A stretch of 32,082 nt of DNA, from the NCBI GenBank assembly GCA_032718475.1, contig JAUCBJ010008994.1, positions 1-32,082 of the forward strand, read 5' to 3'. Below, in pieces: positions 7,215 to 29,734 of the stretch (the stretch's first letter is position 1; every line of letters starts with the position of its first letter). Made by a program: the position numbers and the translations under genes. The notes under the pieces were generated by a model. The model did not search any database. It was not told where the DNA came from and saw only the letters and a program-made list of their open reading frames with translations. Source of the stretch: Nemertoderma westbladi (lineage: Eukaryota > Animalia > Xenacoelomorpha).

Positions 7215-7364
7215 CGAATGTAAAAAATAAAAATAGGTAAAAATAGGTTTTTTTTTGCCAGCTTTAGAGCTATAATTATACAGAAAGAGTCACTTGTTAA
7301 AATTCCAACAAAAGTAGCACGAGAGCCTTAGTTGAGTTGTCACATTAATTAATATAGGAGGTGG

Positions 7365-8236: not shown

Positions 8237-8552
8237 TTAATCCCACGCTTCTTCTCTACATTCTTTTTCTGTGCCCCACGCTTCTTTCTACCATTCAATG
8301 CTAGGGTTTTCAGTTTTGATATGTTCTTCTTCTTTTCTTTTTTCGTGAATTGACTTCCCATTTCTATACTGACAGTATCATAACTGGTATTGTTTTTCTG
8401 CCTCAGGAAAGTAATGGCATTGAACGTTCGGGCATTGAACTATTTTTTCTCCCGGATGATTTCTTCTACATTTTCTTAAGTGTCTGATAAATCTTTCCAC
8501 ATGAATTCTGTGGGTTGTTTCATATTGGTCATATTATATACACATTATCGAT
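8237..8552 (-). pseudogene. GTSF1/Asterix-like double CHHC zinc-finger pseudogene (copy A)
   Basis: Manual translation: DNVYII*P/YETTHRIHVERFIRHLRKCRRNHPGEKIVQCPNVQCHYFPEAEKQYQL*YCQYRNGKSIHEK...EW*KEAWGTEKECREEAWD*. Lost ATG, one frameshift, internal stops. Confidence 0.85.
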
Positions 8553-8810
8553 TATAAAAAGTATATGATAAATATTGTATATTATAAAATTGTTAATTAA
8601 ATTATTAATAAGTATTACCTTAGTGAATATTTAATGAATATAGAGAAGTGGTTTATTATATTATATTCAAGTAATACTCAATCTAAGGCTTATTTATCAT
8701 CAAATAAATTTATTATAATATATTAACTACATTAAATGTATTTTATTTTTTAGATTAACCAAAATCACCCATTATAATAGAATAATAACTAACGAACTTA
8801 TCCATCACCA

Positions 8811-8903
8811 TCACAATAGAATAAAACAATAAACGTTCGAAAGTACACCCTGAATCATATGTGTAGCATCGTATGGGCATATAATATAATCACTGTTATC
8901 CAT
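8811..8903 (-). pseudogene. Truncated 5' fragment of another GTSF1-like gene
   Basis: MDNSDYIICPYDATHMI... then diverges. Upstream 8905-9040 resembles the upstream of the 14294-14602 copy (ccaaaaagacaaa...aaactt...ttttttaga..aatgat.taacttt). Confidence 0.7.
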
Positions 8904-9140
8904 CCAAAAAGACAAACTAAAAACCAAAAAAACAAACTTGAAAAAAAAGAAAACTTAATTTAAGTGAGTTTACAAGAAAACTTGGTTTTAGCAAACTTAA
9001 CTTTTAATGTTTTTTAGAAGGAATGATGTAACTTTTATAGTATTCCTTCTCGTGGTAGACTCGCGGAGTGTAAATGCGATAATCCACATGCACACAGAAT
9101 CCAGAAAAGTGGATTCTGCCACTTTTCTGGAAAATCCTAC

Positions 9141-9700
9141 CAATATTGCAATTCTACAGTTATTGCCAAGCAATAAGTTGTGGGGGCGAGCCGTGTAGTG
9201 AGAATAAGGTATTTATAATATTATTTTTAATTTGATTATACTACTTATATGGGGAGGGGGGCGAGCCGTGAAGTGTGTGAAAGCATATAGAGTTATTGAC
9301 AAGCAATAAGTTGTGGGGGGGGGGGGGGGGGGGGGGGGGGCAAGCCGCGAAGTGAGAATAAGGTATTTATAATATTATTTTTAATTTGATTATTCTAACT
9401 AACTAATAACTCAGTTATTTCGTGATTTGATGAAAAAATAGGGCGAGCCATGAAGCGAGCGAAGCCTTAGAATATGGGTACCATTAACGAGTTGTGGGGC
9501 GAGTTTGATCGATTATTCTTGGTGGGCATACATACATTGATTGGGTACCACACCCGTGTATAGAGAACTATCCGAACTTCCAGGGGGTATGCACCTGGCT
9601 ATAGCACGCTAACCTATTGTCCTGAACCTTCGTGCAGCACGAAGTAAGCAAAGCCTTTAGCATGTATAGGAACTATTGTTGAATTTGTTGATTATTATTG
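9141..9700. repeat. Non-coding region with reiterated GGGGCGAGCCRYGAAG motif (homologous to ~25210-26000); includes a G26 run at 9315-9340
   Basis: Motif copies near 9182, 9258, 9337, 9440 and 9496; long colinear similarity to 25472-26000. Confidence 0.7.
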
Positions 9701-9733
9701 TTATTATAATAATTGTCGAAATTCTTACTTACA

Positions 9734-9978
9734 TTAATTTTCGGTAGGTGGCGGTGTGTGAGTTTCACCAACCATCCGCGGCGGACATATGCACATCGGC
9801 CGCCGACCAGCGAATGGGCCATCTTTACGCAGCCCGGCTACATCTGCGAGTGCGTCGCCCGCACCCTATCTGCCCACAAATCTCTAAATAGTTTATATAG
9901 TCTCCATCTTGTAAATGTTAATTCGTGATGCACGAAAGGTTGCACAACTAACGTTGGTTTCTTACCGCCTTCTGCCAT
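9734..9978 (-). pseudogene. MAEGG/CxCPP accessory ORF, frameshifted copy
   Basis: MAEGGKKPTLVVQPFVHHELTFTRWRLYKLFRDLWADRVRATHS/DVAGLRKDGPFAGRRPMCICPPRMVGETHTPPPTEN*, homologous to 26024-26302. Confidence 0.65.
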
Positions 9979-10125
9979 TGAAATTGAAATTAAGAAATTA
10001 AGAATAATATTATAATTTAAATAATAAAGTGATGTCGGTATCGCTATTCCCGATGTTAATATAGTAAACTATTATAACAGAACTAGCTAATTTTGGTAAG
10101 GCTAATTATCTATGCTTCGTATCTA

Positions 10126-10193
10126 AGTAGTAAGAGTATGCCATCCTCTGCGACAGTTAGACCTACTTCGCACCTTGGGTGTTAAGTAGGTCA
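10126..10193 (+). repeat. Probable Polinton terminus (AGTAGTA...CAGT at +28), interrupted by piggyBac
   Basis: AGTAGTAAGAGTATGCCATCCTCTGCGA-CAGT begins a few bases after similarity to the 19000 region ends. Same spacing as the termini at 21609, 24890 and 27717. Confidence 0.5.
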
Positions 10194-10197
10194 TTAA

Positions 10198-13161
10198 CCC
10201 TTTAATACCCGAATTAAGTATTTATGATGGAAAAAATATTTTCATGCATAATTGTCATGTATAGGGCCCATTTGGGATAATAAAAAAAAAAATTAAAAAA
10301 TTCACCCACGGGTTTTACGTATAGAGGGTCGTTGTTCCTGAACAACATTGGGTATTTGTGGTATAAATCACGCCCTAGATTATTGGTATAAATAACACCC
10401 TAGATTATCTCATAAGTGTCAATGATTTTTTAGTTATATGATATCAAGACTTGATCGAATCGTGTCCACCTTGTCGATGCAAGTACCAGTCTGTCTCAGT
10501 CTCATGTTCATTTCTTGTCAGTTCGTCTGTCTGTCAAAAAAGTATTATTAGAAAATACAGTATATTGACTGTGATTTATTTAATTGAATAAAACATTTAT
10601 CAAAAATAGTTTTCATTTCCGATGGTGAAACAGATAAAAACAGTTTTTGTTTTTTACAATGCACAATAGAACTCCGCACTTTGTACATTGCCAATGCGAA
10701 TAACCGTTAACACAATAGCGACATCGACCTTGATTCGTCATAAATTTAGGGAAGTGGTCTGTCAGATCATACCGAACATCGTTAACTGGGATTGGAACAG
10801 TAGATTTGGATTTCTTGGGTGGAATGGTAATGGGTTCATTGGTAGAGATAGATGGGCGGCCTCGCTTCGAAGTACATGTTGCCTTTCCAGACTTCATTAA
10901 ACTATGGGCTATAATAGTTTGGAAACGAATTAGTGCTAACTGCTTCTTCTTGACAATAGAGAGTTGATTACAGTGACGGCGATAGAGCAACCATCCATTG
11001 GTCACCGAAATTCCAATCAAATAATGTACGATTGGCATATACCACTTTCTACGTTTCAGCTGTATACGGTATAAAGAAAGTAACATATCGCACAAATCCA
11101 CCCCTCCCATACACAAATTGTATTCCTCTACCATGCGAGGTCTATCAATACTAATATATTTCTTATCTGTCGCTGACCATCTATTGGCTGGTGTACCCAA
11201 GTCATGTCCAATGTAACTAGATACCAGCTGAACGACACCATTATCTAACCACTTCACAAGCGTCACCTTTCTATTCACTTCTACTCTCCAATCTAGAGCA
11301 CCTCTTCCTTGCTTCCTCATTTCCTTCTCAGTTAAAAGAAGTTTGTTCGCACCCCGTAACCGATTACTACGAATGGTACCAATTGACCAGATACCCCTAT
11401 CGATAAGATATTTAACTAAATCGATGGACGTAAACAAATTATCGAAATATACCTTATGCCCCAGTCCACGTTGTAACGTCTTAGTTAATCTGACCACTAC
11501 ATTCCCACCACTACCCAATCCAACAATTTCATCCTGGTCCGTGCATTTCCCACAGTATATTTCGAAATCGTATATCAACCCACTGACTCCACAGCGAGCC
11601 CAAACCTTAAAACCCCACTTGATCGGTTTCTTGGGCATGTATTGGCGCATGCCCACTTTTGCCCGCGTTTTCGATGGGATCATCTGTTCGTCCACAGAAT
11701 GTCTCTCTTCAGCAGAAACACTTCTGCACATCTCTCGCACAGAATCAAGCATTGGTCTAACTTTATATAATTTATCTGAATGAGGATCACCAGCTGGTGG
11801 TTCCATTGTGATATCATTGCAGTGAAAATATCTCTTAATAGTTTCAAACCGTAGTCGACTCATAGTATCCGCTATTGCAGAGACGCGAGTTTCATAAGCC
11901 CAATACATTCGATATTGAGGATATTTAATTACACCCATTAGAATTAAAATTCCGAGAAATTGATCAATTTCATTCTCAGAAACATTTATACACTTTGACG
12001 TTTTCGTTTGGACTGTCGAATATAAATTGGTCTGCTCTGCTAAATGCTTAACGAGTGACTCACGAAAGAAATATCTAAAGTATTCCAGTGGCTCATTTGG
12101 TTCAGGAGGTGGATTAGGAAACGCATCCCCAATAAACTCACTGTCTACAGGTTCACTATCCTGCTTTCGCCACCTGTAACTACTATCCTGTATCTCTTCA
12201 TTCGATTTGGAAGCTATATCATCAAGAGCTGCGGCGAGATCGACTATATCATCTGCAGAAATCTCATCCGTAATATCACCACCACCATCAACATTAATAT
12301 CAAACTGTGTTACATCTTCCAATTCATCGTCATCTTCACTCTCAGACCCACTTTTGTTCCCCCCAGGTAACTCCACGCCGACTATCTCATCTTCTTCCAC
12401 CATACCACGGGTTTCGTCAAACCGAACACGACTTCGTTTATAAAATCTACCAGAAGGAATTGATAGTGAATTCTCTGCACTATCACTATCAGCAATATCT
12501 AATCGATTTACTGTTCTCAGGTCTGATAACATTAGCGAGAGGTTAGGGTTAAATCGACTCATACTGTATCTCTTCAGTATAAAAATTAGAAAGTCAAAAT
12601 AAAGTGAAACAACATGAGTAAGAGGCAGACAGACAGACAAATAGACTTTTGAGAAGATAAATTTTAATTTATAATAATATATTTGACCTGAGATACAACT
12701 CTACAGTGTCCAATTACTAAGGCTGCTTTTTACATGGTGTTATAGGTAATGTCCCAAATTTACTTCCATGAATGACCAATGTTGTTCTGTAACAACATGT
12801 AGAAAACAATGCACCACACCCCCCTAAACATACATTCTGCTATGGGGTAACGATTAGTAGGTAGTTAACACGTTATAGGCTATCTGCATATTTTTCGTAG
12901 CTCTTATTATGTTGAAAACAACATACGTTATGGCCTAGAAAGAAGCGCTCTAACGTATAGTGGTACCTGATTCGCTATTTCATCTTTAAAGTCGATCTAT
13001 GGCTATCGGCTTCGTATTGACTCTGTCAGATCAGGTTTAATTACAAACTACAATCATTATGCTATTTATAGCACCCAATCACAAAACAGGAAATTGAATT
13101 TTGTTCATGAGGGAACCAATTATATTTATGTTGTTTACAAACAACAGTGGGCATTAAAGGG
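10198..13161 (-). mobile_element. Autonomous piggyBac transposon
   Basis: TTAA at 10194-10197 and 13162-13165; TIRs CCCTTTAATACCC / GGGCATTAAAGGG (1 mismatch); subterminal TGTT(G)..AACAACA palindromic motifs; intact transposase. Confidence 0.93.
10613..12562 (-). CDS. piggyBac (PGBD-like) DDD transposase
   Basis: Catalytic SVDEQM, FDNLF, GGVDLCD; YMPKKPIKWGFK; C-terminal Cys-rich domain CRYC..CTKCGVLLC..CF..FH. First ATG at 12562 (ORF open to 12640). Confidence 0.95.
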   Translation of the reverse strand: MSRFNPNLSLMLSDLRTVNRLDIADSDSAENSLSIPSGRFYKRSRVRFDETRGMVEEDEIVGVELPGGNKSGSESEDDDELEDVTQFDINVDGGGDITDEISADDIVDLAAALDDIASKSNEEIQDSSYRWRKQDSEPVDSEFIGDAFPNPPPEPNEPLEYFRYFFRESLVKHLAEQTNLYSTVQTKTSKCINVSENEIDQFLGILILMGVIKYPQYRMYWAYETRVSAIADTMSRLRFETIKRYFHCNDITMEPPAGDPHSDKLYKVRPMLDSVREMCRSVSAEERHSVDEQMIPSKTRAKVGMRQYMPKKPIKWGFKVWARCGVSGLIYDFEIYCGKCTDQDEIVGLGSGGNVVVRLTKTLQRGLGHKVYFDNLFTSIDLVKYLIDRGIWSIGTIRSNRLRGANKLLLTEKEMRKQGRGALDWRVEVNRKVTLVKWLDNGVVQLVSSYIGHDLGTPANRWSATDKKYISIDRPRMVEEYNLCMGGVDLCDMLLSLYRIQLKRRKWYMPIVHYLIGISVTNGWLLYRRHCNQLSIVKKKQLALIRFQTIIAHSLMKSGKATCTSKRGRPSISTNEPITIPPKKSKSTVPIPVNDVRYDLTDHFPKFMTNQGRCRYCVNGYSHWQCTKCGVLLCIVKNKNCFYLFHHRK

Positions 13162-13220
13162 TTAATTAATTAAACAATTAATTAATTGGTCGATTAAACA
13201 ATTAATTAATTGTATTATTT

Positions 13221-13730
13221 GTATCAAATAATGTTGCCAAAGGCAATTTAATTTGACACAAATCAATCAGATAGGGGACGGGCGATGAATAGATTGTACT
13301 ACAGTAGATAAAATATACAATACAATAGACACTGTACAATACAATATACAGTACATTTGTATTATTTTTGTCGTACAATAGAAGGTAAATGTAGAATGAA
13401 ATATAAAGATGCGAACGGGGCCCAAAACATAAATTACCCTTTCAAGAAAATAAAATGGGCCAGTTTGGTCCTGGTTCAATCCCTCAATAATCTGCGGCTG
13501 TTTGGGCTCTTATTAGACGTAGCATGACTAACCCCATCGAATCCTATGTTGAGTTATACTGTATACCAACGTGGGGCTGCCACAAAGTTTAAATTATTTA
13601 AAGTATCAAATAATGTTGCCAAAGGCAATTTAATTTGACATAAATCAATCAGGTAGGGACGTGAGATGAATAGATTGTACTACAGTTGATGAAATATACA
13701 ATACAATAGGAACAATAATACAATATACAT
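13221..13730. repeat. Local direct repeats: ~13221-13350 vs ~13603-13730, and ~13531-13602 vs ~14790-14861
   Basis: Shared strings gtatcaaataatgttgccaaaggcaatttaatttgaca... and gaatcctatgttgagttatactgtataccaacgtggggctgccacaaagtttaaattatttaaa. Confidence 0.8.
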
Positions 13731-13775
13731 GGCTGCACCAATTATTAGTCGCCAAGTACATACAATTTATACACC

Positions 13776-14134
13776 GAATTGATGGTTGCTACACAAGACT
13801 ACTAAGGGCAGCCCTAAACATCAGCTGGAGACAACACATGACAAACGCCGAGCTTTATGGTACAATACCACCTGTATCAACCACCCTCCGTGAACGCAGA
13901 TTAACATTCAGTGGGCACTGCTGGCGAAGTAAAGACGAGGTCATACCAGATCTACTTCTCTGGCAACCAACTCATGGAAAGCGTAGTCGTGGACGACCTG
14001 CCATAACATATATAGATCAACTTGAAAGGGATACTGAACTTGGGAGAAACGAAATTGCGACAACTATGGAGAATCGGGAAGCCTGGAAGGATCTCATTTC
14101 CACTGTCCGAGTTCGCTCGACCTAGTAGTAGTAG
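13776..14134 (+). mobile_element. 5'-truncated RTE-clade LINE insertion
   Basis: Encodes IDGCYTRLLRAALNISW..TNAELY..RRLTFSGHCWR..LLWQPTHGKRSRGRP..W; (TAG)n tail; TSD TATACACC at 13768-13775 and 14135-14142. Confidence 0.88.
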
Positions 14135-14293
14135 TATACACCAATAATAATTACATAACAATTTATACTACTCTCATAATTAACTCGCAATAGTAACGGG
14201 AAAAAATAGTTTATTTTCTGGTTTGCGTAATGACTGATTAGTGAATTTCGGTGTCTAAACCTTCATGAGTTTAGGGTGCGGAGAATCGCATCA

Positions 14294-14602
14294 TCACCAA
14301 GACGACTCTTGGTATGTTTGCACGTCAATCCCACACCTCTTCTCCCCACGCCGCCGGACATTTAATCTCTTCTCCACTTTTTTCACTTCTTTTGATTTCT
14401 CGAAAATGGAGCTCCTATTCCTATATTCACAAAATTTTAAATGATGTTCCCTTTCGGCTTCTCTGAAGCTATGTGCAATTTCAAATGGGCACTGTACCAT
14501 TTTTTGGCCAGGAAAGTTCTTCCGACACTTTCTTATGTGTTTTACATATTTTTCCGAAAGAATCCTATGCGTGGCATCGTATGGGCAAATAAAATACTCC
14601 AT
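14294..14602 (-). CDS. GTSF1/Asterix-like protein with two CHHC (U11-48K-type) zinc fingers; probable frameshift in the tail
   Basis: Two C-x5-H-x9-H-x3-C fingers: CPYDATH..H..KC and CPFEIAH..H..FC. An alternative frame gives the tail EEIKCPAAWGEEVWD* ending at 14325. Confidence 0.85.
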   Translation of the reverse strand: MEYFICPYDATHRILSEKYVKHIRKCRKNFPGQKMVQCPFEIAHSFREAEREHHLKFCEYRNRSSIFEKSKEVKKVEKRLNVRRRGEKRCGIDVQTYQESSW

Positions 14603-15564
14603 AGTACCAAAAAGACAAATTTAGTAGGATTTACTTTAAAAAAAAAAACTTTGGAAAACTTCACTTTAACGTTTTTTAGAGATAATGATTTAACTTTACA
14701 TGGTTTTTATTTATATAGAAAGGACCACCTTAATATTTCAAATAGGACCATAGTTTTTGGCATGGCATGCGTGAAGGATTAAGCTAAGCACCCCATTGAA
14801 TCCTATGTTGAGTTATACTGTATACCAACGTGGGGCTGCCACAAAGTTTAAATTATTTAAACCTTCAGATTCATTATCATGTAGACCATTGTCAAATCGC
14901 CCAAGAAATTATAATAAACATCTGGTTTTGCAATAGATTGCATTCTTTCACATTGTGTTGTGAAGCAGCCTGCGCGCCTGACCGCACATAATTAAATAAG
15001 GCCCTCTTTTAATACATAAGTTATATACAGTTTATCTTAAATTTATTGAATTTGTTTTTATTTACAACCCTAATTGTTCTACTGTATTATAATTTATGTT
15101 TTATTATAACAAGCTATATCCTGTTAATCTTTATTAATTTTATTTGTACTGAGGTTTTCGTGGGCGCTGTTTCCAATGGTCCTACTCTCAAAACGATCTA
15201 ACCTACTGTATAATTAATTACTTAAGTCTGCGAGGTATGCGTAAGTAACAAACATCGTTTACCAGTTTTCCTTTAAAAACTATGAAGCTATATTGCTTAA
15301 GAGTTCTAAGGGGCGAGCCACGAGGTAAGATGTTTGAGACTTTTTTAGATATATTATTACTTAATTTTGACCCCCCAGTCGGTATCTATTACAATATAGG
15401 CTATATCTTTTTGCGGAGTCACATAGTAGTCTGAAGTTCCCTAGTCTGCCTCTAGAGGGCGAAATGTCTCAAAATGAAAACCATACAGTAGCTATGAATT
15501 GGTTACTAGGCAATAATACTACATTTTGTATAGTTAGGCTAATGCTGATCGAACGAAAACTGCC

Positions 15565-15636
15565 CTGGTCCATGTGAGGATCGAACCCACGACCTACTGG
15601 AGATGTGAATTCAAAGCAACCACTACACCAAGGTGG
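15565..15636 (-). mobile_element. tRNA-derived SINE head or tRNA pseudogene
   Basis: Minus strand has A-box TGGTGTAGTGG and B-box GGTTCGATCC at tRNA-like spacing; no convincing full cloverleaf. Confidence 0.5.
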
Positions 15637-15708
15637 AACAGTAACGTTCGAATTTGTTCGTTAACGTTCGAATTTGTAAGACTCTGATTTAAGAACCGAG
15701 GCACACCC

Positions 15709-16425
15709 CACAACCACAGCCACAGCCACAGCCACAACCACAGCCACAGCCACAGCCACAGCCACAGCCACAGCCACAGCCACAGCCACAGCCACAGCCA
15801 CAGCCACAGCCACAGCCACAGCCACAGCCACAGCCACAGCCACAGCCACAGCCACAGCCACAGCCACAGCCACAGCCACAGCCACAGCCACAGCCACAGC
15901 CACAGCCACAGCCACAGCCACAGCCACAGCCACAGCCACAGCCACAGCCACAGCCACAGCCACAGCCACAGCCACAGCCACAGCCACAGCCACAGCCACA
16001 GCCACAGCCACAGCCACAGCCACAGCCACAGCCACAGCCACAGCCACAGCCACAGCCACAGCCACAGCCACAGCCACAGCCACAGCCACAGCCACAGCCA
16101 CAGCCACAGCCACAGCCACAGCCACAGCCACAGCCACAGCCACAGCCACAGTCACAGCCACAGCCACAGCCACAGCCACAGCCACAGCCACAGCCACATC
16201 CACAGCCACAGCCACAGCCACAGCCACAGCCACAGCCACAGCCACAGCCACAGCCACAGCCACAGCCACAGCCACAGCCACAGCCACAGCCACAGCCACA
16301 GCCACAGCCACAGCCCCAGCCGCAGCCGCAGCCGCAGCCGCAGCCGCAGCCACAGCCACAGCCACAGCCACAGCCACAGCCACAGCCACAGCCACAGCCT
16401 CAACCACAGCCACAGCCACAGCCAC
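15709..16425. repeat. (CACAGC)n microsatellite, ~119 units
   Basis: Directly visible hexamer array with a few variant units (CGCAGC, CACATC, CACAGT). Confidence 0.98.
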
Positions 16426-16803
16426 TTCTCCAGCACACCACTTCTCCCCACAGGAGAATATTTGTTTATCTGTTGTCAAAATGTTTAACTAATTTGATGT
16501 TTTGGTTACTCATTCATTATGCATTTAAAATAGGATAAAGTTGACTTTATTTGTTTATTTAAGCATATTATTATGAAATTACATAATTAACCTTTTGCCT
16601 GCCACCCCTCGAAATTTTTTTAAAAATTATAACTTTATCATGTTTTTGACTTTAGATTCGTTGGGTATGATAGGATCAGAACGATTTTTTCAAAACTACC
16701 CACTCTTTGACTCAGGGAGTGTATGTTCCCATATGGGAACATTGGCCATTAAACAGACAAAGTAAATATTTATAACATTTTAAATAAACAGCATAGTTAT
16801 ATA

Positions 16804-17655
16804 TTATGAGTAACTTAGTAGGTAAGTATGTAGTAGTGTGCTGTGCCTCGTACTTTAGAACTTACTTATTATGAGTAACTTAGTAGGTAAGTATGCAGTA
16901 GTGTGCTGTGCAGTTTACTTTAGAACTTACTTATTATGAGTAACTTAGTAGGTAAGTATGCAGTAGTGTGCTGTGTAGTTTACATTAGAACTTACTTATT
17001 ATGAGTAACTTAGTAGGTAAGTATGCAGTAGTGTGCTGTGTAGTTTACTTTAGAACTTACTTATTATGAGTAACTTAGTAGGTAAGTATGCAGTAGTGTG
17101 CTGTGTAGTTTACTTTAGAACTTACTTATTATGAGTAACTTAGTAGGTAAGTATGCAGTAGTGTGCTGTGTAGTGTACTTTAGAACTTGAACTTACTTAT
17201 TATGAGTAACTTAGTAGGTAAGTATGCAGTAGTGTGCTGTGTAGTGTACTTTAGAACTTACTTATTATGAGTAACTTAGTAGGTAAGTATGCAGTAGTGT
17301 GCTGTGTAGTGTACTTTAGAACTTGAACTTACTTATTATGAGTAACTTAGTAGGTAAGTATGCAGTAGTGTGATGTGTAGTGTACTTTAGAACTTGAACT
17401 AACTTATTATACTTATTATGAGTAACTTAGTAGGTAAGTATGCAGTAGTGTGCTGTGTAGTGTACTTTAGAACTTACTTATTATGAGTAACTTAGTAGGT
17501 AAGTATGCAGTAGTGTGCTGTGTAGTGTACTTTAGAACTTACTTATTATGAGCAACTTAGTAGGTAAGTATGCAGTAGTGTGCTTTGTAGTGTATTTTAG
17601 AACTTACTTTTTATGAGTAACTTAGTAGGTAAGTATGCAGAGGTGTGCTGTGTAG
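16804..17655. repeat. 65-bp minisatellite, ~13 copies
   Basis: Unit ttatgagtaacttagtaggtaagtatgcagtagtgtgctgtgtagtttactttagaacttactta starts at 16804, 16869, 16934, 16999 ... 17611. Head-to-tail, no unique spacers. Confidence 0.95.
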
Positions 17656-17846
17656 CAGTACTGTAGGTACTAGTGTACTGACTGCTGACTGGCCTGTCTT
17701 TGTAGCCTCAGACTGGCACCTGGTAGGCCAGTACAGCAGTAGGCAGTGTAGCTATACTATGATGTATGATGGCCTAGATGATTGTGACTGTGGACAACTG
17801 ATTGTGCATTGTACATTGTGCATTGTGTGTCTCCGTCTGTCTTTTA

Positions 17847-17964: not shown

Positions 17965-18694
17965 TGTAGAATGCAGAATTGATCAAGAATGCAGAAATAT
18001 GATACTACTTGTAGAATTATAGGGTTAGAAATACGTGCTGTACTCATTATGCAGCAATGGGCCTACTTAGGTCTCTCATTTGGCCAATGTTCCCATATGG
18101 GAACATGAGGTAAAAAGATGTGTACAGTATCTCATAAAATCATTGCACATTCATATATATTGTTTTTAAACAACAAATAAATTACTTGATTCAACATTTG
18201 ATGACTTTCTACTACAATAATTATATATATATATATTATATATATATATTATATTATATTATATATTCAATATATAATATATTATTTGTATATTTCATGC
18301 AAATAAATTATCCTGTTCAAAATTCATATTTTTGCATGAAAGTAGAGGTCCACTGTTCCGAAAATTTTGTCAATCATTGGTAAATTTTCAGTTAATCTGA
18401 CAAAACATATTTATTATGTTGTCCCATATGGCAAGTTAAGAAGAATATTATATATTATAGTACTTATTTTTTTTAGCAACAAGTACATGTTCCCATATGG
18501 GAACATTGGCAGATAAAAGGTTTTAATACGACTGAATATAATAAATATTTCAAACATATACAATATTTCAGTTATAATTAATGTCTCGCATTAACTGTAC
18601 GACTGTTACTGTTCATAATCCTAGGTCAATATACAACAGTTGCTGGAGATATAACTTTTCCATTCCCTACTCTGATTTTCTGTCCATTTTCATT

Positions 18695-18876
18695 GTCATT
18701 CTCCCCGCCGGGACCACCCCATCTTTACACAGCCCAGCTACATCCAGTGAGTGCATCGCCCGCACCCTATGCCTCCACATAACTCTTATTAGATTCATTT
18801 TGTTAAATTGTTGAAACGATGAAGGATGATGTGTGAAAGGTTCTACAACCAACGTCGGTTTACCGCCTTCGGCCAT
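18695..18876 (-). pseudogene. MAEGG accessory ORF, 3'-truncated (duplicate at 21976-22157)
   Basis: MAEGGKPTLVVEPFTHHPSSFQQFNKMNLIRVMWRHRVRAMHSLDVAGLCKDGVVPA, cut at the duplication junction. Confidence 0.6.
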
Positions 18877-19445
18877 TATGTCGAAATTTTAATAATATAA
18901 TTTTATTTAATAATTTATAATTTAATAATTTAAATAATAAAGTGATGCCGGTATCGCTATTCCCAATGTTAATATAGCAAACTTCAACAGAACTAGCTAA
19001 TTTGGTGAGGCTAATTATCTATGCTTCGCAACGTAACTATATATGGCTTATTTCTTTTGTGAAACCGGTGACATATGTGAGTAGATTGAACCCAGACTGT
19101 TGATTGTCGTTAGAGCGTTTAATTATTGTCTAATGCGCGTAGCATGGATAGAGATTCTGGCCTTTGTGTTAACCACATAGGGCGGGCAGCAGATGCTTGG
19201 TATATATGTAACATGGAAAGAGTTGGGCCCGCTACAGCTATGGTCGATTATCCCGGTTTTACTGGCAAGTTGTTATTAATGGCGCCCACGCGCTAAAGAC
19301 CATGCCTCACTTGTTGCCGCGTGAAGGTCTCATGAATGCGTTAAACTTTGTTAATTGCGTAAAGGCTCCACAAACGACGCGTTAAACTTTGTTATATTGT
19401 GTAAAGGCTCCACGAACATGTTAAGATGGGTTGCATAAAGTATAA

Positions 19446-20154
19446 AATTAATAGCATAAAATGGTTTTCTGGGAAGTTAGGACGGTATGGATACCCATGT
19501 ATGACACGGGAATCGATGTTTAATTCGGCGTAATTTAAATTGAAATGTTTAAAATGTAGCGGATTGCTGCTTAATTCCCCATTGAACCTGGCGTTCGTAA
19601 AAGCATTCCAATCAAAATATACTTAGGTAATTTTCCTTGGATTATGTTCGATTCTGTATAACTGGACTGCCCACCACCAATAGTGAAGGTTTTCACTTCT
19701 TGTTTTAACAAGTTGTAAATAAAGTCATTTTTTTGTGACCCCAATAAATGCGCGCGCATAACCTCAGAATCAATCCTGTGGCGTTTTATTTTTAAATTAA
19801 TACTCATGATTTCTACTCTTGGAATTGTTAATCCGGCTGGGGGTTCAACTTTCAAAAAAAAATATTTGATACTCGGTCTATACGAAGTCGAACGTTAATT
19901 CCGGGCGGCAATAATTTGTCCTGACTTGTCAAGTCTAGAAAAATTGGGGTCACTACGAATTTAACATAATTACCGCGAATGTCGTTCCCAGTAGCGACAG
20001 GTACCCCACCCAGATTATTATCTGTATCCTCATAACCACCAGCTCTTAAAATACCGCTTTTTTCGTTAGCATCTGTCAACAGTAATGTCTGAAACGTAGA
20101 CTTATTGGCGTAGAATCCATTCGAGGTTTCAACTAGCTTTTCATTTAGGTACAT
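19446..20154 (-). pseudogene. Polinton major capsid protein, copy B
   Basis: ORFs 19852-20154 and 19571-19855 plus out-of-frame NPLHFKHFNLNYAELNIDSRVIHGYPYRPNF. C-terminus and protease deleted. Confidence 0.88.
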
Positions 20155-21175
20155 CGAATGTAAAAAATAAAAATAGGTAAAAATAGGTTTTTTTTTGCCA
20201 GCTTTAGAGCTATAATTATACAGAAAGAGTCACTTGTTAAAATTCCAACAAAAGTAGCACGAGAGCCTTAGTTGAGTTGTCACATTAATTAATATAGGAG
20301 GTGGCCTACTACTATGATCAGCATGCGCATTGCTGCTGCATTTTTAATAATCCTGTGCTGGCTTGTTGACAAAATTGCGCCGCTACAACGCCCTATCACC
20401 CATGACATTTGCTAGATCATCCACATCTTCAAGACCAGTGTCCTTTAAAATGCGCCTCAAGAAAGTCATGGGCTATCCACCACGCCTATCCACCCCTATG
20501 AGGCCGCCAAAGCACACAATCTCACCTCAAGTGCATCAGTTTGTATTTTAATTACCTTGCTCTCGTGATACTTTTACCGAAAGATTAAACTTCACCCTAT
20601 TGCAAGTCACTAGACACATATTGTATATATTGATTGTCTCATATCAGAAGGGGCTAAGTCACATCTTTTCTCTTCAGGAAATGGGGTTATTGATCATATA
20701 TAGTAGATTGTTATATAGCTCGGTGTACATTCTGCCAGAGCCCCAAAGAACCAGAATGTATGGTTGCTGTGATATTTTCAATTTCATATTGACCTAATCA
20801 GAGAACCCTTTAGTAATCATTAGATTTGGTATTTATTTTTTCAAACCCGTAATAGTGAACTCTCGAACACAAGTTTTATTTTTATTAATTAATATTTTAA
20901 TAAATAAACATTTCCATATAATAATAATAATTCAATACAATTATATTACCCTGCAACCATTATTTAGTTTTTATCGGCTAATTCCATGCGTTGTAGGCGG
21001 ATGGCGGTGGCTTCCTTTCCCTGATTGTCTAGTGCTTCCTAACCTGTATAGTTCAACAAAGTTTAAAGTTTTTACTTTGTGTAATTAATTAAATTATATT
21101 CATGTAACAGTTAGTAATAAAACGGAAATGGTGAGGGATTGAACTTGTTGTTACTTGTTTAATTTACCTTGTCAA

Positions 21176-21491
21176 TTAATCCCACGCTTCTTCTCTCCAT
21201 TCTTTTTCTGTGCCCCACGCTTCTTTCTACCATTCAATGCTAGGGTTTTCAGTTTTGATATGTTCTTCTTCTTTTCTTTTTTCGTGAATTGACTTCCCAT
21301 TTCGATACTGACAGTATCATAACTGGTATTGTTTTTCTGCCTCAGGAAAGTAATGGCATTGAATGTTCGGGCATTGAACTATTTTTTCTCTCAGATGATT
21401 TCTTCTACATTTTCTTAAGTGTCTGATAAATCTTTCCACATGAATTCTGTGGGTTGTTTCATATTGGTCATATTATATACACATTATCTAT
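21176..21491 (-). pseudogene. GTSF1-like pseudogene (copy B)
   Basis: Near-identical to 8237-8552 with the same lesions. Confidence 0.85.
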
Positions 21492-21608
21492 TATAAAAAG
21501 TATATGATAAATATTGTATATTATAAAATTTGTAATTAAATTATTAATAATTATTACCTTAGTGAATATTTAATGAATATAGAGAAGTGGTTTATTATAT
21601 TATATTCA

Positions 21609-21945
21609 AGTAGTAGGGTAAACAACTTAAATGAAACAGTGTCTGCCATAGTCTACCATGTTAAAGAATTTGCCGAACGGCTCTTGCCCCGCCTACTTAC
21701 TATGATTACCATTGTGTCACCCCGCCCACTTACTATGGTTACCATTGTGCATGTGCATATGTGACATGTCACCACTGTGTATATGTGACATATGTGGTAT
21801 AAGGCCAGTTCGCAGACGGAAGTAATTTAATTAATTCGTGTCTACCGGTTGGCGTTTGACCTTGAACCGCAATAGGTAAAACCCAAAATAGTAAGTGGGT
21901 TGCAGACGTTTGTTATAAAGTCTTTAACATGATAGACTATTACAG
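21609..21945 (+). repeat. Probable Polinton terminus/TIR segment
   Basis: Starts AGTAGTAGGGTAAAC where similarity to copy A ends. CAGTGTCTGCCATAG at +28; internal inverted repeat 21648-21671 vs 21917-21940. Confidence 0.65.
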
Positions 21946-22726
21946 ATGCAACAACTAAAAAAGGTGAATAATAAGGTCATTCTCCCCGCCGGGACCACCC
22001 CATCTTTACACAGCCCAGCTACATCCAGTGAGTGCATCGCCCGCACCCTATGCCTCCACATAACTCTTATTAGATTCATTTTGTTAAATTGTTGAAACGA
22101 TGAAGGATGATGTGTGAAAGGTTCTACAACCAACGTCGGTTTACCGCCTTCGGCCATTATGTCGAAATTTTAATAATATAATTTTATTTAATAATTTATA
22201 ATTTAATAATTTAAATAATAAAGTGATGCCGGTATCGCTATTCCCAATGTTAATATAGCAAACTTCAACAGAACTAGCTAATTTGGTGAGGCTAATTATC
22301 TATGCTTCGCAACGTAACTATATATGGCTTATTTCTTTTGTGAAACCGGTGACATATGTGAGTAGATTGAACCCAGACTGTTGATTGTCGTTAGAGCGTT
22401 TAATTATTGTCTAATGCGCGTAGCATGGATAGAGATTCTGGCCTTTGTGTTAACCACATAGGGCGGGCAGCAGATGCTTGGTATATATGTAACATGGAAA
22501 GAGTTGGGCCCGCTACAGCTATGGTCGATTATCCCGGTTTTACTGGCAAGTTGTTATTAATGGCGCCCACGCGCTAAAGACCATGCCTCACTTGTTGCCG
22601 CGTGAAGGTCTCATGAATGCGTTAAACTTTGTTAATTGCGTAAAGGCTCCACAAACGACGCGTTAAACTTTGTTATATTGTGTAAAGGCTCCACGAACAT
22701 GTTAAGATGGGTTGCATAAAGTATAA

Positions 22727-23435
22727 AATTAATAGCATAAAATGGTTTTCTGGGAAGTTAGGACGGTATGGATACCCATGTATGACACGGGAATCGATGT
22801 TTAATTCGGCGTAATTTAAATTGAAATGTTTAAAATGTAGCGGATTGCTGCTTAATTCCCCATTGAACCTGGCGTTCGTAAAAGCATTCCAATCAAAATA
22901 TACTTAGGTAATTTTCCTTGGATTATGTTCGATTCTGTATAACTGGACTGCCCACCACCAATAGTGAAGGTTTTCACTTCTTGTTTTAACAAGTTGTAAA
23001 TAAAGTCATTTTTTTGTGACCCCAATAAATGCGCGCGCATAACCTCAGAATCAATCCTGTGGCGTTTTATTTTTAAATTAATACTCATGATTTCTACTCT
23101 TGGAATTGTTAATCCGGCTGGGGGTTCAACTTTCAAAAAAAAATATTTGATACTCGGTCTATACGAAGTCGAACGTTAATTCCGGGCGGCAATAATTTGT
23201 CCTGACTTGTCAAGTCTAGAAAAATTGGGGTCACTACGAATTTAACATAATTACAGCGAATGTCGTTCCCAGTAGCGACAGGTACCCCACCCAGATTATT
23301 ATCTGTATCCTCATAACCACCAGCTCTTAAAATACCGCTTTTTTCGTTAGCATCTGTCAACAGTAATGTCTGAAACGTAGACTTATTGGCGTAGAATCCA
23401 TTCGAGGTTTCAACTAGCTTTTCATTTAGGTACAT
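22727..23435 (-). pseudogene. Polinton major capsid protein, copy C
   Basis: Duplicate of 19446-20154. Confidence 0.88.
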
Positions 23436-24456
23436 CGAATGTAAAAAATAAAAATAGGTAAAAATAGGTTTTTTTTTGCCAGCTTTAGAGCTATAATTAT
23501 ACAGAAAGAGTCACTTGTTAAAATTCCAACAAAAGTAGCACGAGAGCCTTAGTTGAGTTGTCACATTAATTAATATAGGAGGTGGCCTACTACTATGATC
23601 AGCATGCGCATTGCTGCTGCATTTTTAATAATCCTGTGCTGGCTTGTTGACAAAATTGCGCCGCTACAACGCCCTATCACCCATGACATTTGCTAGATCA
23701 TCCACATCTTCAAGACCAGTGTCCTTTAAAATGCGCCTCAAGAAAGTCATGGGCTATCCACCACGCCTATCCACCCCTATGAGGCCGCCAAAGCACACAA
23801 TCTCACCTCAAGTGCATCAGTTTGTATTTTAATTACCTTGCTCTCGTGATACTTTTACCGAAAGATTAAACTTCACCCTATTGCAAGTCACTAGACACAT
23901 ATTGTATATATTGATTGTCTCATATCAGAAGGGGCTAAGTCACATCTTTTCTCTTCAGGAAATGGGGTTATTGATCATATATAGTAGATTGTTATATAGC
24001 TCGGTGTACATTCTGCCAGAGCCCCAAAGAACCAGAATGTATGGTTGCTGTGATATTTTCAATTTCATATTGACCTAATCAGAGAACCCTTTAGTAATCA
24101 TTAGATTTGGTATTTATTTTTTCAAACCCGTAATAGTGAACTCTCGAACACAAGTTTTATTTTTATTAATTAATATTTTAATAAATAAACATTTCCATAT
24201 AATAATAATAATTCAATACAATTATATCACCCTGCAACCATTATTTAGTTTTTATCGGCTAATTCCATGCGTTGTAGGCGGATGGCGGTGGCTTCCTTTC
24301 CCTGATTGTCTAGTGCTTCCTAACCTGTATAGTTCAACAAAGTTTAAAGTTTTTACTTTGTGTAATTAATTAAATTATATTCATGTAACAGTTAGTAATA
24401 AAACGGATATGGTGAGGGATTGAACTTGTTGTTACTTGTTTAATTTACCTTGTCAA

Positions 24457-24772
24457 TTAATCCCACGCTTCTTCTCTCCATTCTTTTTCTGTGCCCCATG
24501 CTTCTTTCTACCATTCAATGCTAGGGTTTTCAGTTTTGATATGTTCTTCTTCTTTTCTTTTTTCGTGAATTGACTTCCCATTTCGATACTGACAGTATCA
24601 TAACTGGTATTGTTTTTCTGCCTCAGGAAAGTAATGGCATTGAATGTTCGGGCATTGAACTATTTTTTCTCTCAGATGATTTCTTTTACATTTTCTTAAG
24701 TGTCTGATAAATCTTTCCACATGAATTCTGTGGGTTGTTTCATATTGGTCATATTATATACACATTATCTAT
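24457..24772 (-). pseudogene. GTSF1-like pseudogene (copy C)
   Basis: Duplicate of 21176-21491. Confidence 0.85.
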
Positions 24773-26023
24773 TATAAAAAGTATATGATAAATATTGTAT
24801 ATTATAAAATTTGTAATTAAATTATTAATAATTATTACCTTAGTGAATATTTAATGAATATAGAGAAGTGGTTTATTATATTATATTCAAGTAGTAGGGT
24901 AAACAACTTAAATGAAACAGCGTCTGCCATAGTCTACCATGTTAAAGAATTTGCCGAACGGCTCTTGCCCCGCCTACTTACTATGATTACCATTGTGTCA
25001 CCCCGCCCACTTACTATGGTTACCATTGTGCATGTGCATATGTGACATGTCACCACTGTGTATATGTGACATATGTGGTATAAGGCCAGTTCGCAGACGG
25101 AAGTAATTTAATTAATTCGTGTCTACCGGTTGGCGTTTGACCTTGAATCGCAATAGGTAAAACCCAATATAGTAAGTGGGTTGCAGACGTTTGTTATAAA
25201 GTCTTTAACATGTTTTCGTGATTTGATGAAAAAATGGGGCGAGCCATGAAGCGAGTGAAGCCTTAGCATATGGGTTAAGGTTATAGTATTTATAATATTA
25301 TTTTAATTTGATTATTCTACCTATGGGGCGAGCCATGAAGTGAGTGATAGCATCGAAGTAAGGTTATGACGCAACAACTAAAAAAGGTAAATAAACACAG
25401 ACTTATGGGGCGAGCCATGAAGTGAGTGATAGCATCGAAGTAAGGTTATTGTATTCAACTAACGACAGCCACCAATATTACAATTCTACAGTTATTGCTA
25501 AGCAACTAGTTGTGGGGCGAGCCGCGAAGTGAGTATAAAGTTATAGTATTTATAATATTATTTTTTAATATGATTATTCTACTTATATGCGGAGGGGTGA
25601 GCCATGAATTGTGTGAAAGCATATAGGTGCAATCGGGGAGTTGTCTAATCGTCGTCCGGCGCCGACATAAATTTTATTTGCTAATAACTCGGTTACACAG
25701 TGATTTGATGACAAAATAGGGCGAGCCATAAAGCGAGCGAAGCCTTAGAATATGGGTACCATTAACGAGTTGTGGGGCGAGTTTGATCGATTATTCTTGG
25801 TGGGCATACATACATTGATTGGGTACCACACCCGTGTATAGAAAACTATCTGGACTTCCAGGGGTACGCATCTGGCTATAGCACGCTAACCTGATGTCCT
25901 GATCCTTCGCGTCCTGAGCCTTCGCGCAGCACGAAGTAAGCAAAGCCTTTAGCATGTAGGTACTATTGTTGAATTTGTTGATTATTAATGTTATTATATT
26001 AATTGTCGAAATTATTACTTACA

Positions 26024-26302
26024 TTAATTTTCGGTTGGAAGTGGCGTATGCGTTTCACCGATCATCCGTGGCGGGCACACGCACATCGGTCGTCCCCCAG
26101 CGATCGGCAAGACGATGATCCCCGGGTGCGCCGGGACCACCTCATCTTTATACAGCCAGTCTACCTCCGGCGAGTGCATCGCCCGCACCCTTTGTGCCCA
26201 CATAACTCTGATTAGATTCATCCTGTTAAATTTTTTAAATGTTGAAGGATGATGCACGAAAGGTTGCACAACTAACGTTGGTTTCTTACCGCCTTCGGCC
26301 AT
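26024..26302 (-). CDS. MAEGG/CxCPP accessory protein, 92 aa, unknown function (intact copy)
   Basis: ATG at 26302 through stop; protein-level conservation with the diverged copies at 9734-9978 and 18695-18876. Confidence 0.6.
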   Translation of the reverse strand: MAEGGKKPTLVVQPFVHHPSTFKKFNRMNLIRVMWAQRVRAMHSPEVDWLYKDEVVPAHPGIIVLPIAGGRPMCVCPPRMIGETHTPLPTEN

Positions 26303-26699
26303 TGAAATTGAAATTAAGAAATTAAGAATAATATTATAATTTAAATAATAAAGTGATTTTGGTATCGCTATTCCCAATGTTAAAATAGAGATGCTTGGTA
26401 TATAATGGAAAGAGTTGGGGCCCCAATATGGCTATGTCCGATTATACCGGTTTTACTGGCGCCCATACGCTAAGACTTCACCTCACAAGGTTTCAGTGAT
26501 TGATGATGAAAATTAAAAAAATTAAAAAACGAATAGAGCCGCGTGAAGACCCCACCCACGTCACTTACCGCGTCCCATATATTTAGTAAAAATATTGCTA
26601 TTACTATATACCCAAGAATTAAATATTTATTATTAATATTAATGCTAATAATATTTTCACACACCGCAATTGAATATACCCATAACCGAAATAAATAAA

Positions 26700-27139
26700 T
26701 TATTTTATTAATGAAAGTGTCCACAGTAATAACAATAAATCATTGTACCATAAATTAGAGGTGAATATATTCATTGCTCCGGGATTTTTCGGCACCTCGG
26801 TTAGATAATACAGACAAAATAGACCACACTGAGTCGAATGTGGCGCTTGAAATATTTTACGATTCCAAGTATGCCTTTGGATATATTTATGCAACCAATA
26901 GGATATTTTCGGTGGTGGGGATTTTCCAAACGAATCTAAATAATAAGCAATTCTGTTAACCACGCGTACGCAAGACCAGTGTTGCCCTGGTAGGCCTATA
27001 CGTTGATTATTAATAATAAATGAATAATTTTGTTTATGCTTATTTTTTTTGCGTGTATTAGGTGTAATTGGTCGATTGCGTAAACACCGATGTATTCGGG
27101 CCCCACCGGGAATTTCGCTAATTGTATAAAGTCCAACAT
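26700..27139 (-). pseudogene. Adenain-like cysteine protease (copy D, frameshifted)
   Basis: ..IGLPGQHWSCVRVVNRIAYYLDSFGKSPP..WNRKIFQAPHSTQCGLFCLYYL..YND. Confidence 0.9.
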
Positions 27140-27190
27140 CTTAGCGTGCGCATATCATTTCGCTTACTTTGTACTATGCGAGATCTTTAT

Positions 27191-27716
27191 TTATTCGGTT
27201 ATTATTTCCTTGGCTTCTGAAATAGATAGAAGAGCGTCATAGCTTGCAATTAATATAACGTTAATAGTGTTAACTAGCGCATTACTAAATTTCAGAATCA
27301 AATGCCCGCTTGTATTTATACTAGGTTGAATCTCATGGCTTTGATCGCCTCCCGCGGTAAGATCAAATACTATCAAAGAAAATTGGGTACGAAACCGTTC
27401 TGGTGTTAGACGTTCATTAAACATTCGAATTCCAACATAAAATGATTTTCCAGAAAGTTAGGGCGATATGGATACCCGTGTATAATACGGGAGTCGATGT
27501 TTAGTTCGGCATAATTTAAACCGAAATGGTTAAAATGTAGTGGATTACTGCTTAATTCCCCGTTGAAGCTGGCGTTGGTAAGCATTCCAATCAAAATATA
27601 CTTAGGTAATTTCCCTTGGATTATGTTTGATTCTGTATAACTGGACTGTCCGCCACCAATAGTGAAGGTTTTCACTTCTTGTTTTAACAAGTGATAAATA
27701 AAGTCATTTTTTTGTG
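27191..27716 (-). pseudogene. Polinton major capsid protein, C-terminal half (copy D)
   Basis: EVKTFTI..GKLPKYILIGMLTNASFNGELSSNPLHFNHFGLN..PYRPNF / FSLIVFDLT..GHLILKFSNAL..VILIASYDALLSI. Confidence 0.92.
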
Positions 27717-28453
27717 AGTAGTATGGGTATAGCCTTCTTTGGCCCAGTGTCTGCCATAGCCCATCATTGATGTCAATCATCGAATGCCTGCGTGTGTCTG
27801 CCATAGCCCATCATTGATGTCAATCATCTAATGCCTGCGTATTGACGACTATTAACAACCAATAGGAACGCAGGAATAATCACAGTTTAACCAATAGGAA
27901 TGTAGGAATGTGATGGTGGCAATATCCTACATTCCATTCCCAGTCATTGACCTCAACAGATTTAGCGCTTCCTTACTCAAATGCTTGCGTGTGTCTGCCA
28001 TACTTTATCATAGATGTCAATCATTGAATGCCTGCGTATTGACAACTATTATTAACCAATAGGAACGCTTACAGTTAAAGAATGTAGGAATAAATCACAG
28101 TTTAACCAATAGGAATGTAGGAATATGATAGCAGTAAAATCCTACATTGAACAGTTTAATCAATTAGTAAGTCGTAGGACCAGTAATCAAGTCCTACGAC
28201 TTACTAATTGATTAAACTGTTCAATGTAGGATTTTACTGCTATCATATTCCTACATTCCTATTGGTTAAACTGTGATTTATTCCTACATTGTTGACTGAT
28301 TGATTGATTGACTGGCTGGCTGGCTGGCTGATCTACAGCTAAAACTACTCTAACGATTTTGTAGGAATGTTTGTAGATCTCTCTTTCTATCCCCAATTAT
28401 TACCCTCAATTGATTTACTGATTCTTCTCAATAGTGGGCTATGGCAGACACTG
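27717..28453 (+). repeat. Probable Polinton terminus with structured subterminal region (47-bp tandem, 19-bp inverted pair, 100-bp palindrome)
   Basis: AGTAGTATGGGTAT interrupts the MCP. CAGTGTCTGCCATAGCCCA 27745-27763 is inverted at 28435-28453. 47-bp units at 27747 and 27794; palindrome 28081-28290. Confidence 0.65.
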
Positions 28454-29452
28454 TAATTGATATGTTATTGACTTTTAATTAACTTGTAATTGATATGTTA
28501 TTGACTTTTTAATTAACTTATCTTTTCTGCTAGGTGAGTAGTACAGAACCTCGAATATAATATAATATAATTAATTGAGTAATAAATTAATTCTAATTAT
28601 TTTTTCGCTGAGGGGAGGATTTTTTACAGCACACGTGCTACGTAACTGTAATAGAATAACAATAACCCTGTTGATTAGAGCCAGTCTTTTATTACATAAT
28701 AATATAATAATAATAATACAGAACTAACAACTACTAATTTGTTTTACAGTTAAACAGTTTTACAGAATCACCATCCACCAATATTTAATGCCAAATCAAA
28801 TTGTCTAATGTTGTTGTAGACGGATGATGCAGTGGTTCCTTCTCGATGATGGAGTTGTTATCTTAACCTATATAATTCAACAAAGTTTAAAGTTTTACTT
28901 TGTGTCTTTGATGAAGTCTATTTTATTAAATTATTTATATTTATACAGTATTTATATATTAAAAACGGATATGGGGAGGGAGGGTGTTATTGAAACAGTT
29001 GTCAATTATTGTTTTAATTACCTTGTGTATGTAATTGATATTTTATTGATTTTAATTAACTTATCTTTTCTGCTAAGGTGAGTAGTACAGAGCCTCGAAT
29101 ATAATATAATATAATATATTTCATCGAGCAATACATTAATTTCAATTATACAAGCCAAAACAGGACGAGCGCAACGAGGCTAATGAAGGAGAAGAGTATT
29201 GTAAAACTAAAGATGTCATACTTAACTTAAATAGCCCTAGTTAGAAGGTTTACAAATGACAGTTAAAGTGTGTAAGGGCAAACTGAAATGGATCTCTGTT
29301 TCTACAACTAGTTTACTAGCATCGCCTTCACTCATACATTTTTGGGAAAGACGGTTTTCTTACATCTAATAGAGATTAGTATAATGTACTCTCTAATATA
29401 GGCTCTTGTGCTGCGCTAAGGCCCCACGAATGTGTTTTATTTACCGTGTTAA

Positions 29453-29734
29453 TCAGTCCCGCGCTTCTTCTGGCCATTCCATTCTTTTTTCGTCTTTCTT
29501 TTCCTCTTCTTTCGTTGCACCTTTTTCGAAAATTGATTTGCCATTTCTGTATTGACAGTATCTCAAATGATGCTCTTGTTCCGCTTCAGCAAAGAAATGT
29601 GAGTCAATATTTGGACATTGAATAATTTTCTGATATGGATGATTTTTTCGACATTTTCTTATATGTCTGACGAATCTGTCCGCATGGATCCTATGGCAAG
29701 GGTCATAAGGACAGACGATGTATTCGTTATCCAT
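29453..29734 (-). CDS. GTSF1/Asterix-like protein with two CHHC zinc fingers (intact, 93 aa)
   Basis: CPYDPCHRIHADRFVRHIRKCRKNHP and CPNIDSHFFAEAEQEHHLRYC fit C-x5-H-x9-H-x3-C twice; charged tail ending EWPEEARD; intronless. Confidence 0.9.
   Translation of the reverse strand: MDNEYIVCPYDPCHRIHADRFVRHIRKCRKNHPYQKIIQCPNIDSHFFAEAEQEHHLRYCQYRNGKSIFEKGATKEEEKKDEKRMEWPEEARD

Follow-up and report, generated by a model that had tools for sequence, protein, structure and literature searches.

GTSF1-Like Genes in a Window of Nested Mobile DNA

GTSF1 is a host gene that aids the silencing of jumping genes, and genes resembling it occur beside remnants of Polinton-like elements in a contig of Nemertoderma westbladi (assembly GCA_032718475.1, contig JAUCBJ010008994.1). 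The whole stretch analysed, 32,082 nt in length and hereafter called the window, is made up of nested mobile DNA: a long interspersed nuclear element (LINE), a piggyBac-like element, a LINE 3′ fragment, two satellites and repeated pieces of a capsid-protease module. The preliminary description of this DNA had listed six GTSF1-like copies, and six-frame translation revealed GTSF1-like frames on the minus strand at all six places (ORF, open reading frame; aa, amino acids):

8237-8552, minus strand: copy A, a GTSF1-like gene that is broken and whose Trp motif is doubled; a capsid remnant lies about 1 kb downstream
8811-8916, minus strand: copy B, a 5′ stub with half of finger 1
14294-14602, minus strand: copy C, both CHHC fingers intact, a frameshift preceding the acidic Trp tail
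21176-21491, minus strand: copy D, broken, of the lineage of A (98%)
24457-24772, minus strand: copy E, tandem duplicate of D (99.4%)
29453-29734, minus strand: copy F, an open 93-aa ORF with two CHHC fingers, a charged linker, Trp87 and an acidic C-terminal motif

The earlier count of at least four distinct variants is reduced to three measurable lineages (F, C and A/D/E) plus stub B, the first-finger match of which is weak (E 0.0012) and lies below the cut-off. A, D and E constitute a single lineage with 97.5-99.4% mutual DNA identity, and D and E reside in a tandem duplication of 3281 bp (99.75% identity, within 18695-25212) that represents either a recent duplication or an assembly repeat. 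DNA identity across lineages amounts to 68-73%. Tandem CHHC fingers had been described for the complete copies; they are present in F and C and broken in A/D/E, where the start codon is absent, the first zinc cysteine is replaced by a stop, a frameshift and two further stops follow, and finger 2 is devoid of its second His. The acidic Trp tail of copy C lies in another frame, ending near 14326, and that of A/D/E is found behind the stops. All window copies are intron-free.

With regard to identity, the zf-U11-48K profile (PF05253) proposed as a check scored above cut-off in F (E 4e-7) and in C (E 2e-12, two stretches). Copy F matched mouse GTSF1 (6x46) with E 1.5e-11 and 9nhb with E 2.8e-8, as compared with E 0.012 for U11-48K, and the top Atlas clusters for the GTSF1-like query were GTSF1-like (0.95-0.96) vs. 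0.86 for TRM13. By these scores the copies resemble GTSF1 more than U11-48K or TRM13. Against 1.84 billion representatives, F had 491 relatives at E ≤ 0.001; identity over the fingers was 30-69% for the best of them, and all eight zinc ligands are invariant in 20 aligned sequences. Names were looked up for 30 relatives; many are nameless, and the named ones are proteins of cellular eukaryotes, none of them viral. The structural model of F (predicted local distance difference test, pLDDT, 76 overall and 82-91 in the fingers) retrieved 6x46 and the GTSF1 chain of the SIWI-GTSF1-Maelstrom complex (9nhc) as best fold matches, and overlays the PIWI-bound GTSF1 chain with a root-mean-square deviation of 2.3 Å over 65 columns. 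Word-index homologue searches with F, the capsid piece and the protease gave no matches. Scans of IMG/VR and JGI metagenomes, which detect near-exact peptides only, revealed no related locus; one match (L001) was dismissed as an unrelated phage-like contig.

Polinton-Like Element Remnants around the Genes

The GTSF1-like copies are interspersed with the following ends, module genes and motifs:

27717-28460, plus strand: left end of an inserted element, starting with AGTAGT, with 47-nt repeats and a palindrome with 103-nt arms
21609-21950, plus strand: homologous left end directly 5′ of copy D, with a duplicate at 24890
10126-10160, plus strand: possible diverged left end (weak)
27191-27717, minus strand: major capsid gene of the double-jelly-roll type (F54H12.2 / PF21738 family), 3′ part, with the cut at 27717
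6481-7289, minus strand: broken capsid remnant downstream of A, with further copies at 19395-20229 and 22673-23510
26700-27140, minus strand: probable adenain-like cysteine protease with a weak Josephin match; relatives at about 5990-6437 and at 31477-32080
26027-26302, minus strand: small conserved module ORF without family assignment; copies near 9841-9979, 18670-18873 and 21927-22154
30164-30679, plus strand: ORF of 171 aa without family assignment; F lies on one side of it and the third protease remnant on the other
29408-29436, minus strand: element-family motif, 17 nt past the stop of F; others near 4370, 5805, 9632 and 25924

The first Atlas match of the capsid piece (0.98) was F54H12.2 / double-jelly-roll, PF21738 being annotated on 13-78% of the members of the top three clusters. 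On this similarity, which stems from one source (Atlas) and was not confirmed by the Pfam scan, the capsid remnants are assigned to the double-jelly-roll major capsid protein. The Josephin match of the protease is sub-threshold (E 9e-5), and the adenain-like reading is based on His-Trp and Gln-x-Cys-Gly motifs, which we take to be those of such proteases. A PHROGs search of eight window ORFs gave nothing useful. Between copy A and its capsid remnant, a broken minus-strand frame at about 7500-7900 is possibly a minor capsid gene, a guess from its position. We term the elements Polinton-like because the window yielded neither a right end or target-site duplication nor a polymerase, integrase or ATPase gene.

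The (AGT)2 motif is the commonest Maverick end motif (PMC8097293), and homologous 5′-(AGT)2 ends as in Polintons/Mavericks are located at breakpoints at 27717, 21609 and 24890. AGTAGTA termini had been proposed near two of the copies. The one at 27717 is supported: it cuts the capsid gene at that exact base, its alignment with 21609/24890 outscores every one of the 2137 null sites, and it coincides with loose contig ends in two of the public DNA runs introduced below (X1 and X3). The one at 10126 is weak, as 0.5% of null sites score equally high and no blastn match was obtained. As a stand-alone terminus marker AGTAGTA was rejected; it occurs 16 times on both strands vs. 4.1 ± 2.0 in shuffles, and among these matches several are duplicates and three lie in a LINE tail. 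The 27717-28460 end carries a near-perfect palindrome (28078-28293) plus an outer inverted repeat, and a repeat of very deep coverage overlaps about 28200-28361.

Several ties connect the genes with the elements. Copies A, D and E are situated about 1 kb upstream of a capsid remnant in a 2.09-kb block, which counts as one observation for one lineage. The similarity of the 3′ flanks of F and A noted in the preliminary description was recovered (28813-28981 vs. 8050-8199, 72%, E 2e-17), the latter stretch being the 3′ flank of the A/D/E lineage. The 26/29-nt match of the motif at 29408-29436 was reproduced exactly, and this motif belongs to a five-copy family of these elements. Copies B and C have a common 5′ flank (8987-9035 vs. 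14650-14697) and a second element motif upstream of both.

Further ties come from public DNA runs labelled X1, X2 and X3 (two samples cover the F region), in which read depth does not give copy number. No RNA run was among those listed, an outcome that carries no information on expression. The six contig pieces that in X3 lead from the element end via F and the 171-aa ORF to the protease have depths of 124, 126.8, 108.2, 113.2, 108.2 and 99.6; in X2 the six pieces range from 69 to 113. The 171-aa ORF, the sole plus-strand gene of the module, equals its neighbours in depth in X2 and X3 and is joined to the third protease remnant in X1 contigs; in X1 and X2 contigs its side is linked to the protease, with a 332-nt insertion in between. 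Also in X1 and X2, the sequence 5′ of F-like copies continues into a flank similar, on visual inspection, to that of A/D/E. The runs contain at least three variants of deep coverage, i.e., the F type and two more, one of them with an in-frame 12-nt insertion. Some F-like copies are interrupted at 29676-29678 in contigs of all three runs, and the insertion ends in an AGT-repeat tail resembling the LINE fragment at 14124.

Selection, Divergence and Phylogeny

Ratios of nonsynonymous to synonymous substitutions (dN/dS) were derived from Nei-Gojobori counts over 61-62 finger codons. For F vs. A, D and E they amount to 0.14, 0.14 and 0.15 (Fisher P 4e-8 to 4e-7), so that the value near 1 named beforehand as refuting the proposal was not found across lineages. 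In pairs with C, synonymous sites are saturated (proportions of synonymous and nonsynonymous differences, pS 0.82-0.84 and pN 0.24-0.29); P was below 1e-6 for all six inter-lineage pairs. Within A/D/E the ratio is 0.8-1.0 on one to five changes (A vs. D 0.79 and A vs. E 1.04 on four and five changes). Two contig variants have pN/pS of 0.35 and 0.32 among the differences listed (17 and 25; 40 of 49 rows); among these there are no stops, and the zinc ligands and the basic-ridge residues R20/K27/K30 are unchanged. Purifying selection has acted across lineages, and the inserted A/D/E copies decay neutrally, a combination that fits the gene of an active element.

The proteases yielded dN/dS of 0.11 and 0.15, the capsid 0.05 and 0.06 and the small module ORF 0.44. 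Divergence of A vs. F (dS 1.44, dN 0.20) is matched by that of the proteases beside them (dS 1.4-2.2, dN 0.13-0.21). A host gene family could be conserved as well, yet its divergence should not follow that of the proteases; the matched divergence favors a gene of the element.

In a quick tree of 65 columns, for which 122 of 150 homologues were kept (28 lacked two complete fingers), the window rows F, C, A and D form one clade (Shimodaira-Hasegawa-like approximate likelihood ratio test 99) on a stem of 0.75. Five short homologue predictions stop matching just past finger 1, which hints at a host intron at this point; the window copies continue through. A processed retrocopy had been named as an alternative origin, and the longest A run within 60 nt past five of the stops is 3-4. 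Taken together, selection, matched divergence, a single clade, the lack of introns and poly-A, flanks, motifs and depth in X3 bear out well the proposed capture by a capsid-encoding Polinton-like family, and the gene is very probably carried as cargo of such elements.

PIWI- and RNA-Contact Features

The basic ridge of finger 1 and the central Trp residues of GTSF1 are required for activation and PIWI binding (Arif et al., PMC9385479). Three of the four ridge residues (mouse R26, R29, K36, K39) are kept, the series reading H, R, K, K in F and L, K, K, K in C; the position of mouse R26 is Arg in only 25/150 homologues. An acidic Trp motif resembling that of the host terminates all three lineages (in another frame in C, behind the stops in A/D/E and with Arg at its last position in F), although synonymous sites are near saturation, and is doubled in the A lineage; W87 of F falls into a column at least 90% conserved. 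A tail of at most five residues past the motif is found in only three of 88 motif-bearing homologues (median 159.5). In F, Trp follows the last Cys by 26-31 residues vs. a host median of 40 (10th percentile 34). In sequence, finger 2 and the linker are strongly remodelled relative to hosts. As two modules have been kept and the remainder dropped, PIWI binding is suggested as the selected function, and we predict that the protein probably binds a host PIWI.

Proposed Mechanism and Alternative Explanations

In the reading that we prefer, a host GTSF1 mRNA would have been captured, likely once, by Polinton-like elements, the passage through mRNA being suggested by the intron-free state of the copies. 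The captured gene would have been trimmed to the fingers and the PIWI-binding motif and held under purifying selection. Its product would contact PIWI via the terminal acidic Trp motif and RNA via finger 1, would occupy the GTSF1 site on target-engaged PIWI in competition with host GTSF1 and would blunt slicing or silencing of the element by PIWI-interacting RNAs (piRNAs). A competitive mimic is preferred on two grounds: the element would profit from inhibition, and finger 2 and the linker have been remodelled. For this full explanation, i.e., a captured and selected cargo predicted to bind PIWI and compete with host GTSF1, we estimate a probability of about 0.45; that the effect is inhibitory instead of activating is a tentative prediction.

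A number of points weigh against this explanation. Some concern the elements. Carriage in a complete element is a prediction, because neither a protein-primed DNA polymerase (pPolB), integrase or packaging ATPase nor a right end with target-site duplication nor a bridging contig was found. The first three were absent from all 170 frames of at least 42 aa outside the LINE, the piggyBac ORF, the satellites and the duplicated blocks, where the elements are fragments; a right-hand end or target-site duplication was not detected in the window, which holds only left ends of elements that are truncated or run off; and no contig in X1-X3 spans the distance from element end to protease. Depth in X1 is uneven (278-771). 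The protease label is without homologue or fold support, its single-sequence model being poor (pLDDT 48), and the tree identifies no donor, 74/122 of its inner branches being open. Other points concern the protein. In F, the one copy with an open frame in the window, Arg occupies the position at which C, A, D and E carry the final Trp of the motif. The two modules on which the activating role of host GTSF1 depends are both retained, which leaves room for activation or another partner, and a Trp mutant still activates at saturation (PMC9385479), so that inhibition does not follow from sequence. In nematodes, the GTSF-1 fingers have been rewired to a non-PIWI partner (PMC13650160), and broad suppression of piRNAs should damage the germline needed by the element (PMC6719617).

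The cargo may instead be a working PIWI activator, by which the element tunes silencing, limits itself or its rivals, or favors one PIWI paralogue. The retention of both activation modules under purifying selection and the overlay with PIWI-bound GTSF1 described above agree with this; in addition, GTSF1 paralogues activate different PIWIs (PMC9385479) and strategies of self-control have been argued for mobile elements (PMC6719617). Boosting silencing, however, offers no obvious direct gain to the element, and an unaltered activator does not sit easily with the remodelled finger 2 and linker (stem 0.75; Trp spacing 26-31 vs. 40 in hosts). We regard this alternative as unlikely.

It is rather improbable that the cargo no longer acts on PIWI and instead serves the element cycle as an accessory protein, for instance by binding RNA or tRNA. 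GTSF1 binds tRNA (PMC9539491), a switch of partner has occurred in nematode GTSF-1 (PMC13650160), and the A-lineage gene adjoins the capsid module. The nematode rewiring, however, was accompanied by loss of the aromatic motif and the basic ridge (PMC13650160), both of which are kept here, where the retained sequence ends with the Trp motif, doubled in the A lineage.

Improbable as well is a family of host GTSF1 paralogues that arose by retroposition and multiplied in repeat-rich chromatin, and that either received insertions of Polinton-like elements or was passively carried along. Hosts often carry several paralogues (PMC9539491, PMC13650160), an element end was inserted directly 5′ of copy D, a complete element was not seen in the window, and purifying selection by itself does not distinguish host from element genes. 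Against such a family stand the divergence matched to the adjacent probable proteases, the common 3′ flank of F and A, the element motif 17 nt past the stop of F, its depth in X3, which equals that of element end and protease, and the neutral decay of inserted copies that lack poly-A. Finally, chance zinc-finger-like frames or an assembly artefact, for which the near-perfect tandem duplication of D/E as a possible assembly repeat could be invoked, are ruled out for F and C by profile, sequence and fold matches to GTSF1, the F region also being present in contigs of two samples.

The arms-race model of the piRNA pathway predicts counter-defence encoded by elements, and a captured, selected 93-residue GTSF1 homologue opens this prediction to direct testing with the PIWI slicing assays already available. 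Even as an activator, a core part of its own silencing machinery borne by a mobile element would represent a novel type of cargo; as a minimal GTSF1 found in nature, it would also indicate the parts sufficient for PIWI contact.

Other Features of the Window

Besides the Polinton-like remnants, the window contains:

492-3794, minus strand: LINE with endonuclease and reverse transcriptase, an open 1100-aa ORF with a cysteine-rich N-terminus
10194-13165, minus strand: piggyBac-like transposon insert, DDE_Tnp_1_7, with an open 695-aa frame and TTAA-CCC...GGG-TTAA ends
13670-14140: LINE 3′ fragment
15708-16425: CCACAG microsatellite, 120 copies
16802-17655: 65-bp satellite, 13 copies

The piggyBac-like insert lies outside the GTSF1-like cargo. 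The LINE 3′ fragment, presumably of the RTE type, is bracketed together with copy C by a 72-bp direct repeat (13531-13602 and 14790-14861, 98.6%). Coding remnants (LINE, piggyBac, capsid, protease and GTSF1-like) are nearly all located on the minus strand from 492 to 32082; such a one-sided coding layout is known from single-strand piRNA source loci.

Comparison with Known Systems

The full-text literature, searched through top-ranked listings with few subscription journals and Repbase outside the scope, yielded no description of a transposon or virus that carries GTSF1 or a U11-48K finger. GTSF1 and Polintons were co-mentioned in one review, as separate topics. A viral fold library searched with copy F gave nothing at E 0.001. 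The best rows were two "putative glycoproteins" of Drosophila Vesanto virus (A0A7D4W439, E 0.013, probability 0.97; A0A7D4W433, E 0.077, probability 0.90), which on this structural similarity may hide tandem CHHC fingers. Vesanto virus is bidna-like with PolB segments, and the term zinc finger is absent from the paper describing it (PMC8363768). According to a 2019 review, no element-encoded factor against the piRNA pathway was known (PMC6719617). A stolen and trimmed GTSF1 acting as a competitive PIWI inhibitor would, if our tentative prediction holds, be the first protein antagonist of this pathway encoded by a mobile element, possibly paralleled in Vesanto virus.

Like GTSF1/Asterix from mouse (6x46) and silkworm (9nhb/9nhc), copies F and C encode two U11-48K CHHC fingers of equal spacing and the R29/K36/K39 ridge; an acidic Trp motif follows, out of frame in C and with Arg at its last position in F. 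Unlike host GTSF1, the copies comprise only 93-105 aa, are intron-free, end at the Trp motif, have a remodelled finger 2 and linker and His or Leu in place of mouse R26 (a position variable in hosts too), and occur in multiple copies in remnants of mobile elements.

Host-derived cargo of Polintons/Mavericks (adintoviruses) includes homologues of Bcl2 and IAP (PMC8502044), and wosp/krma cargo is known from nematode Polintons (PMC10680173). The terms GTSF, U11-48K and CHHC are absent from the text and one supplement of PMC8502044. As in these cases, a host gene is under purifying selection and adjoins a double-jelly-roll capsid module that has (AGT)2 ends. In contrast to Bcl2/IAP and wosp/krma, however, the gene found here is a component of the host anti-transposon pathway. 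Polintons at C. elegans eri-6/7 also meet a small-RNA defence gene, but rearrange the locus without carrying the gene (PMC11414722). Anti-silencing factors of plant transposons are VANC21/VANC6 and miR820 (PMC6719617); by analogy, the GTSF1-like gene is proposed as an element-encoded factor countering host silencing, its activity being predicted, whereas VANC is no stolen pathway component and affects DNA methylation within its own family (PMC6719617). With its function inferred, the GTSF1-like gene adds a new type of cargo to a known type of element.

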